IMG/VR virus record: IMGVR_UViG_2579779067_000001
Direction: 5' to 3' (one strand)
Length of the DNA: 54,751 nucleotides
Source of the DNA: a virus
Lineage: Duplodnaviria; Heunggongvirae; Uroviricota; Caudoviricetes
Shown here: piece after piece, positions 7,396-7,656 of the stretch
How positions within the stretch are numbered: the first letter of the stretch is position 1
Layout of the letters: the number at the start of each line of letters is the position of its first letter
Translations under genes and position numbers: made by a program
Notes under the pieces: model-generated
What the model was told of the DNA's origin: nothing
Seen by the model: only the letters and a program-made list of their open reading frames with translations
The model's database searches: none

Positions 7396-7656
7396 ATGCA
7401 ATCACCATTACGAAATGTGCGTAAGGCGCATTGTTTCACTTTGTAGCATGTTGCTGCGGGTGTTCAAGTCAATCCAGCGACGTTGAGTCGTATTGAGAGG
7501 CTGGAGCAGATTCCATCTATCGAGCTTGCAGAACGTTTAGCCAATTTTTTTAAGGGTGAAATCAGCGAAATGCAGATTCTTTATCCGGCACGTTTTCAAT
7601 CTAGCCAAAACCAGAATGGGTTTAAACCACAGGAACAGGAGGTGAACCGTGGGTAA
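7396..7656 (+). pseudogene. cro: cro-like HTH regulator interrupted by in-frame TAG at 7444-7446
   Basis: ATG 7396 with GGAGG SD; reads MQSPLRNVRKAHCFTL*HVAAGVQVNPATLSRIERLEQIPSIELAERLANFF...; stop falls inside the HTH. Confidence 0.55.

Follow-up and report, generated by a model that had tools for sequence, protein, structure and literature searches.

A probable recent nonsense mutation of cro in an otherwise intact SfII/SfV-like prophage of Escherichia coli

A single C-to-T transition, which turned the glutamine codon CAG at position 17 of cro into the amber codon TAG, has probably inactivated this gene recently, and in one strain, in an otherwise intact SOS-type prophage of the SfII/SfV kind residing at thrW of E. 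coli. The lesion was found in a stretch of 54,751 nucleotides, called here the window, whose features are collected in Table 1. What is described below is an ordinary, strain-specific allele with loss of function, and both the gene and the kind of prophage are known.

Table 1. Positions in the window of the features discussed in the text
Feature	Position	Strand	Basis or remark
attL (47-bp core), overlaps tRNA-Thr(CGU) at its 3' end	1399-1445	+	Repeated perfectly, in direct orientation, at 42602-42648
int, xis, early left genes, replication, Q, lysis, terminase, head, contractile tail and baseplate genes, full length	1462-37118		tblastn
OL-like operator pair (putative)	6514-6528 and 6537-6551		Repeat family and motif scan
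cI-type repressor, 230 aa, HTH and LexA-like S24 autocleavage domain, intact	6606-7298	-	Pfam HTH_3/HTH_26 and Peptidase_S24
OR-like operator cluster in the cI-cro spacer (putative)	7319-7381		Repeat family and motif scan
Operator-like site A, TTGCGTAATAAGCAA	7319-7333		Repeat family and motif scan
Operator-like site B, TTGCGCAAAATGCTT	7340-7354		Repeat family and motif scan
Operator-like site C, TTGCGCGTTATGCAT	7367-7381	-	Repeat family and motif scan
Shine-Dalgarno sequence GGAGG of cro, separated by 4 nt from the ATG, conserved in relatives	7387-7391	+	Read directly
cro-type gene, 86 codons, nonsense-disrupted, pseudogene in the source strain	7396-7656	+	Translation; orthology with intact 261-nt CDSs and SfII cro
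TAG (amber) at codon 17, derived T at 7444, ancestral CAG (Gln)	7444-7446	+	Alignment
ymfL, CII-like regulator, intact	7649-8206	+	Pfam Phage_CP76; PHROG 101 CII-like activator, E=1.4e-70
attR, right end of the 41.2-kb prophage	42602-42648	+	Direct repeat; homology to phages SfI/SfII/SfV stops here

Translation of positions 7396-7656, from the ATG at 7396-7398, gives MQSPLRNVRKAHCFTL, then the amber codon, then HVAAGVQVNPATLSRIERLEQIPSIELAERLANFF and further residues up to a terminal NRG before the TAA at 7654-7656. A preceding sequence-only reading had described a cro-like gene with these very elements (the GGAGG, the ATG, the in-frame TAG and the final TAA) lying divergently from cI. Its letters and coordinates agree with the sequence, and the divergent neighbour on the minus strand is indeed a repressor that combines an HTH with a Peptidase_S24 domain. 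The possibility that the stop had arisen by chance in a spurious open reading frame was rejected, as both flanks of the codon are homologous to an intact, annotated CDS of 261 nt which occupies the same position in relatives. With its frame broken at codon 17, and with its longest downstream open reading frame starting only in helix 3, the locus is a pseudogene of the HTH_3 family rather than a functional member of it.

The properties of the encoded protein were derived from its CAG-restored orthologue, which is identical to the window product save for codon 17. This protein matched HTH_3 (PF01381) over residues 5-58 with 32.2 bits, against a cut-off of 23; HTH_3 and HTH_31 were the only Pfam families reported, and the profiles of P22_Cro (PF14549) and of the λ Cro family gave no significant match. 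It resembles solved structures only weakly (E=0.026 for the best PDB match), and a tail of 28 residues extends at its C terminus. According to the HTH_3 register and the PDB alignments, codon 17 specifies the second residue of helix 2, where the stop had been placed from the sequence alone; it is Leu16, not Gln17, that is aligned to the canonical Gln of the 434-Cro type. The predicted truncated product would thus comprise 16 residues and lack both HTH helices. Past the stop, the sole in-frame start yielding at least 30 amino acids is the TTG at 7483, which opens a reading frame of 57 codons and lies within helix 3, the recognition helix. Since this TTG falls inside the recognition helix, no downstream start restores the motif, and the earlier statement to this effect stands.

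Assignment of the gene as cro depends on its surroundings. It diverges from a LexA-type CI, two sets of operator-like sites are present, and it is the first gene of the early rightward operon; judged by its sequence context, it occupies the cro position in an immunity region of the lambdoid type. Operator binding, repression of the cI maintenance promoter and the requirement for lytic growth are known as roles of Cro only for λ, and they are attributed to the present protein by analogy. The cI gene is full length and devoid of stops in tblastn, and its DNA is identical across the gene to that of three related loci (L209, L217 and L219). The spacer between cI and cro measures 97 bp, and a simple sigma-70 scan of it did not find a promoter. 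The three sites in the spacer resemble the pattern TTGCG-N5-TGCAA. Throughout the 54.7-kb window only two perfect matches to it occur, both at 6514-6551, just beyond a terminator-like hairpin of cI (6569-6586, minus strand). By analogy with λ, we infer that the spacer sites and these left sites are putative CI/Cro operators, in a layout which would resemble OR and OL. Taken together, the truncation, the cro position in the immunity region and the intact homologues sharing the same ATG lend support to the cro-null genotype proposed at the outset.

Downstream of cro lies ymfL, followed by an O-like gene with iterons and then by Dam, RusA and Q. The GTG start of ymfL is located at 7649, so that the gene overlaps the 3' end of cro by 8 nt, and it is preceded by its own AGGAGG at 7637-7642; it is annotated likewise in RefSeq relatives. 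The iteron-like repeat is 15 bp long and present in six copies at 8839-8961, inside the O-like replication gene (8551-9492), and presumably marks the phage origin. When loci L207-L216 and L221-L229 were compared, with the junction at about window position 7640, an identical YmfL of 185 amino acids was found in other genomes to follow immunity modules of at least three unrelated kinds, namely the HTH_3 Cro, P22_Cro and YdaS types; recombination has thus made the boundary between cro and ymfL a mosaic joint. Another E. coli bears a lesion of a different nature at this place (L235 3128-3446; GCA_003399945.2, CP042893.1), where a deletion joins approximately codon 64 of cro to the middle of ymfL, leaving a 71-aa Cro which keeps the HTH and destroying ymfL.

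The ancestral state of codon 17 was established by alignment to homologues, as had been suggested in the sequence-only reading, and it is CAG (Gln). This codon, within an intact 261-nt CDS, is present in four E. coli genomes (90-99% identity) and in phage SfII, and in the 291-nt cro alignment with strain GF131 the base at 7444 is the sole difference from the window. A 43-nt megablast query with the T at its centre, a design in which no 28-nt seed can omit that base, gave 0 matches in 5,426 complete E. coli genomes, and its C-bearing version matched 420 genomes. With a 20-mer, TAG was encountered 0 times vs 78 for CAG in metagenome contigs, and once vs at least 120 times in viral contigs, the lone TAG contig being 100% identical to the window. 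Two exact-pattern scans of GTDB representative genomes did not reveal the TAG allele. An exact look-up of the 57-aa post-stop frame, used as a marker of other truncated copies, likewise returned no record in another assembly. The viral contig with TAG, IMGVR_UViG_2579778807_000002 (L086) of IMG/VR, matches the window at 100% over 2,625 bases. Scaffold KK736550.1 of GCA_000692855.1 (window position + 39526) is also window-identical, and no gene is called there in the interval between cI and ymfL.

The gene is otherwise well maintained. Intact were 191 of the 193 other full-length CAG copies, the two exceptions being one spurious match and one in-frame deletion in a contig of 2x coverage. Between the main haplotypes, pN/pS amounts to 0.04-0.10, which indicates strong purifying selection on intact cro.

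The lineage of the prophage itself could be followed by means of a rare variant of the O-like replication protein, which is lineage-specific, whereas YmfL and two other frames (of 112 and 81 amino acids) were too widespread to serve as markers. Exact look-up of this variant retrieved 24 contigs of the lineage. The 86-aa cro is called in 21 of them, and the rest are the window's own assembly and two places grouped with it. Base-by-base comparison covered two of the 24 contigs, L217 (GCA_018050025.1) and L219 (GCA_051128045.1). Over 5,942 bp each differs from the window by two SNPs, one of which is 7444 T>C, and within cro only this base differs. Such near-identity of prophages that carry C at 7444 identifies TAG as the derived state, of very recent origin, in a haplotype otherwise encoding an intact Cro. 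From the distribution of the allele, the nonsense change appears limited to the sub-lineage represented by the window's assembly.

Two differences from most relatives were noticed in the operator region. Site A has G>A at 7325; site B has A>G at 7351, and this second change creates a consensus TGC half-site. Each is found in 3 of 206 copies of the locus sample, a count that includes the window's own two copies. Together with 7444 they made up three of ten apparently private variants, all three within 120 bp (permutation p=0.036). Nevertheless, a cluster of three hits in the switch was rejected: both operator variants recur once each in an unrelated background, and, decisively, L217 and L219 carry both of them together with an intact CAG cro. 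The sequences thus indicate that 7325A and 7351G are lineage polymorphisms unrelated to the amber codon. Variation at positions 7349-7351 of site B was seen in L124 and L157 as well, two loci that are unrelated. Lineage-specific non-synonymous changes were recorded at 2409 (int, H72Y), 9368 (O-like, D273G), 10823 (LexA-family, R64L) and 12188 (DUF968, P7S). Those at 9368 and 10823, which lie inside the compared region, are common to the cro+ sister prophages and therefore older than the amber.

The remainder of the element is complete. The window begins with host DNA containing proA and the gene of tRNA-Thr(CGU) (thrW, 1369-1444). In tblastn with 55 CDSs of the E. coli SC407 prophage, the closest prophage in a complete genome, and with 14 CDSs of SfII, an internal stop was found in cro alone and no frame breaks were seen; about 57 other prophage genes were tested, and all are intact, as are both att sites and the putative operators. 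The backbone is that of the lambdoid phages of Shigella and E. coli with myovirus tails, namely SfI, SfII, SfIV and SfV, and occurs as well in E. coli phages, for example vB_EcoM-720R4. The right flank consists of a P4-like satellite followed by E. coli pao genes, which identifies the host as E. coli. That the element might be a serotype-converting Shigella prophage was considered and rejected, as its SfII-like backbone is without gtr genes and its flanks are of E. coli.

In place of a gtr serotype-conversion cluster of the Sf-phage kind, the attR side carries other cargo on the minus strand (38728-41170). An Acyl_transf_3 protein is encoded at 38728-39795, and at 40346-41170 a GIY-YIG protein which matches the model of the anti-phage defence system PD-T4-3 with E=2.6e-140. 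The P4-like satellite (42649-53562) uses the thrW att site too, where it follows the prophage in a tandem arrangement, and its genes encode an integrase (42812-43978), Psu (46239-46811), Ash (48887-49531) and a D5/Toprim primase (51393-53063). A partial att copy of 24 nt (53539-53562) and an integrase-like remnant (53603-53687) are found at its far end. Between the int and psu genes of the satellite, at the known position of the P4 defence hotspot, an ORF of 531 codons (44050-45645, minus strand) gave no match in Pfam or PADLOC and is a candidate for an uncharacterised defence gene.

The closest known counterpart is SfII. Its Cro (SfII_38, YP_008318516.1) and the E. coli orthologues WP_032314368.1 and WP_001191674.1 show 96.5% protein identity with the window gene. 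The SfII gene (29493-29753, 261 nt, annotated cro) likewise has 86 codons, the same ATG and Shine-Dalgarno sequence, and a location between a CI-like S24 repressor and ymfL/cII. Both phages have the backbone, the integrase and the thrW attachment site in common. The window prophage differs from SfII in its TAG at codon 17, in the lack of gtrA, gtrB, gtr(type) and IS elements, and in its cargo of acyltransferase and PD-T4-3 genes.

With the all-alpha XRE/HTH_3 Cro proteins, such as those of 434 and P22, the restored protein shares its HTH_3 domain and the Cro position of a bistable switch. It differs from them in the weakness of the structural similarity, the lack of a P22_Cro match and the C-terminal tail described above, and its DNA binding is putative. 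A further parallel is offered by prophage e14 of E. coli K-12, which has the same gene order (cohE/ymfK, croE/ymfT, ymfL) and a homologous YmfL. However, the match of K-12 to the query is limited to the part with ymfL (positions 322-401), and the cI and cro of e14 therefore belong to another immunity type; moreover, e14 is heavily decayed, whereas the window prophage is complete.

As to the lesion itself, the classical amber (sus) phage mutants, in which CAG was converted into TAG, bear the same molecular change. They were products of laboratory mutagenesis, whereas the allele described here comes from the assembly of a natural isolate, with no evidence of a suppressor. In its expected working, the present prophage would resemble λ prophages defective in cro, such as cro27 and the cro-deleted laboratory prophages, with CI immunity kept and the second repressor missing, although λ Cro differs in its fold and in the operator code that it reads. 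The cro27 allele is a missense mutation (PMC3010116). In phages of the SfII type a cI/Cro switch has been described, while N, cII and cIII were not identified (PMC3851460); given the reported lack of N and cIII, downstream consequences may differ.

A recent nonsense mutation has been treated so far as an accident. One could also suppose that it was favoured by selection on the host, as a first step of prophage domestication in which lytic killing is blocked while immunity and cargo are kept. Such an interpretation would accord with cro being the first and only lesion in a prophage which is intact elsewhere, with a cargo of possible benefit to the host (the PD-T4-3 defence gene and the acyltransferase), and with the observation that loss of Cro in λ lowers spontaneous exit from immunity (bioRxiv 10.1101/2021.04.19.439022). 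On the other hand, the allele occurred once and did not recur in hundreds of relatives, and 29 of the 765 possible single-base changes in cro create a stop, which makes a chance event unremarkable. The apparent cluster of three mutations in the switch, moreover, dissolved once both operator variants had been found to coexist with an intact cro in sister prophages. We consider selection of this kind unlikely, and retain an ordinary, strain-specific loss of function as the preferred reading.

It is rather improbable, too, that the TAG results from an error of sequencing or of the consensus, with C as the true base at 7444 and an intact cro in the living strain. The allele is, admittedly, unique to one assembly: the two public copies, contig L086 and the NCBI scaffold, agree with the window in every letter and probably go back to a single submission, other assemblies have C in prophages that are nearly identical, and no other assembly has a called 57-aa fragment on record. 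Yet the change is a clean substitution, situated outside homopolymers and outside Dam (GATC) and Dcm (CCWGG) sites, and C>T is the most frequent spontaneous change. The surrounding 5.9 kb contain no other assembly-specific difference, which argues against a locally poor region, and two more places group with the class lacking a called cro.

If the nonsense codon is real, it might still be suppressed, either by a supE-like tRNA of the host or by efficient read-through, in which case full-length Cro would be made and the prophage would be normally inducible. A supE-type tRNA acting at a TAG derived from CAG inserts glutamine and yields the wild-type protein, and the change from CAG to TAG is the classic supE-suppressible one, from which inserted Gln would restore exactly the wild-type Cro. 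Amber suppressors are, however, rare among natural isolates, the window encodes no tRNA besides tRNA-Thr and hence no suppressor, and the stop is conserved in no relative examined and hence is not programmed. A search of positions 6200-8300 gave no Rfam match at E<=1 and thus no known recoding RNA. These observations make suppression very unlikely. Programmed stop-codon read-through or recoding was rejected on the same grounds, i.e. the non-conserved stop, the lack of a suppressor tRNA in the window and the lack of an Rfam recoding element.

Finally, a functional Cro beginning after codon 17, with the stop in a harmless leader, has practically no probability and is refuted by the alignments: the annotation of every homologue, that of the viable phage SfII included, opens at this ATG behind the same Shine-Dalgarno sequence and gives 86 amino acids, a comparison of 26 protein variants showed hardly any change in residues 1-16, and HTH_3 begins at residue 5 with the first in-frame start past the stop lying in helix 3; the scenario which could have overturned the sequence-only reading is thereby eliminated.

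Returning to a recent loss of cro function as the preferred reading, its consequences can be proposed on the λ paradigm. It was reported that λ requires Cro for lytic growth, and that in reporter strains bearing cro27 exit from immunity was rarer and occurred only through cI mutations (bioRxiv 10.1101/2021.04.19.439022). In the strain considered here, the intact CI would keep the lysogen immune and stable. Cleavage of CI upon SOS induction would allow the early promoters to fire, with Cro being absent; the cI maintenance promoter would then not be shut off, and early transcription would not be moderated. Without Cro after the loss of CI, the switch could not lock into the lytic state, and either a return to repression or abortive development would be expected, with little or no phage. 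The prophage is thus probably immune but non-productive, or very poorly productive.

Effects beyond the loss of Cro may also be considered. About 205 nt of untranslated cro mRNA would precede ymfL, and the stop may therefore exert some Rho-dependent polarity, both on this gene and on those for replication; this polarity may be small, given the strong Shine-Dalgarno sequence of ymfL itself. Traces of wild-type Cro might be produced by low-level, near-cognate reading of UAG by tRNA-Gln, and such read-through might leave the prophage hypo-inducible rather than dead.

The significance of an otherwise ordinary strain-specific pseudogene is modest. Still, tools that call prophages would score this 41-kb element as intact on account of its att sites and full gene set, while one base probably abolishes phage production; complete gene content does not imply inducibility. 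Should selection on the host have been involved after all, the very first step of domestication would have been caught: a 41-kb prophage, perfect but for a single point mutation in its switch, which still supplies immunity and a PD-T4-3 defence gene. The source strain and the cro+ near-identical prophages, separated by two SNPs in 5.9 kb, constitute a natural near-isogenic pair in which the essentiality of Cro in phages of the SfII/SfV type could be addressed.
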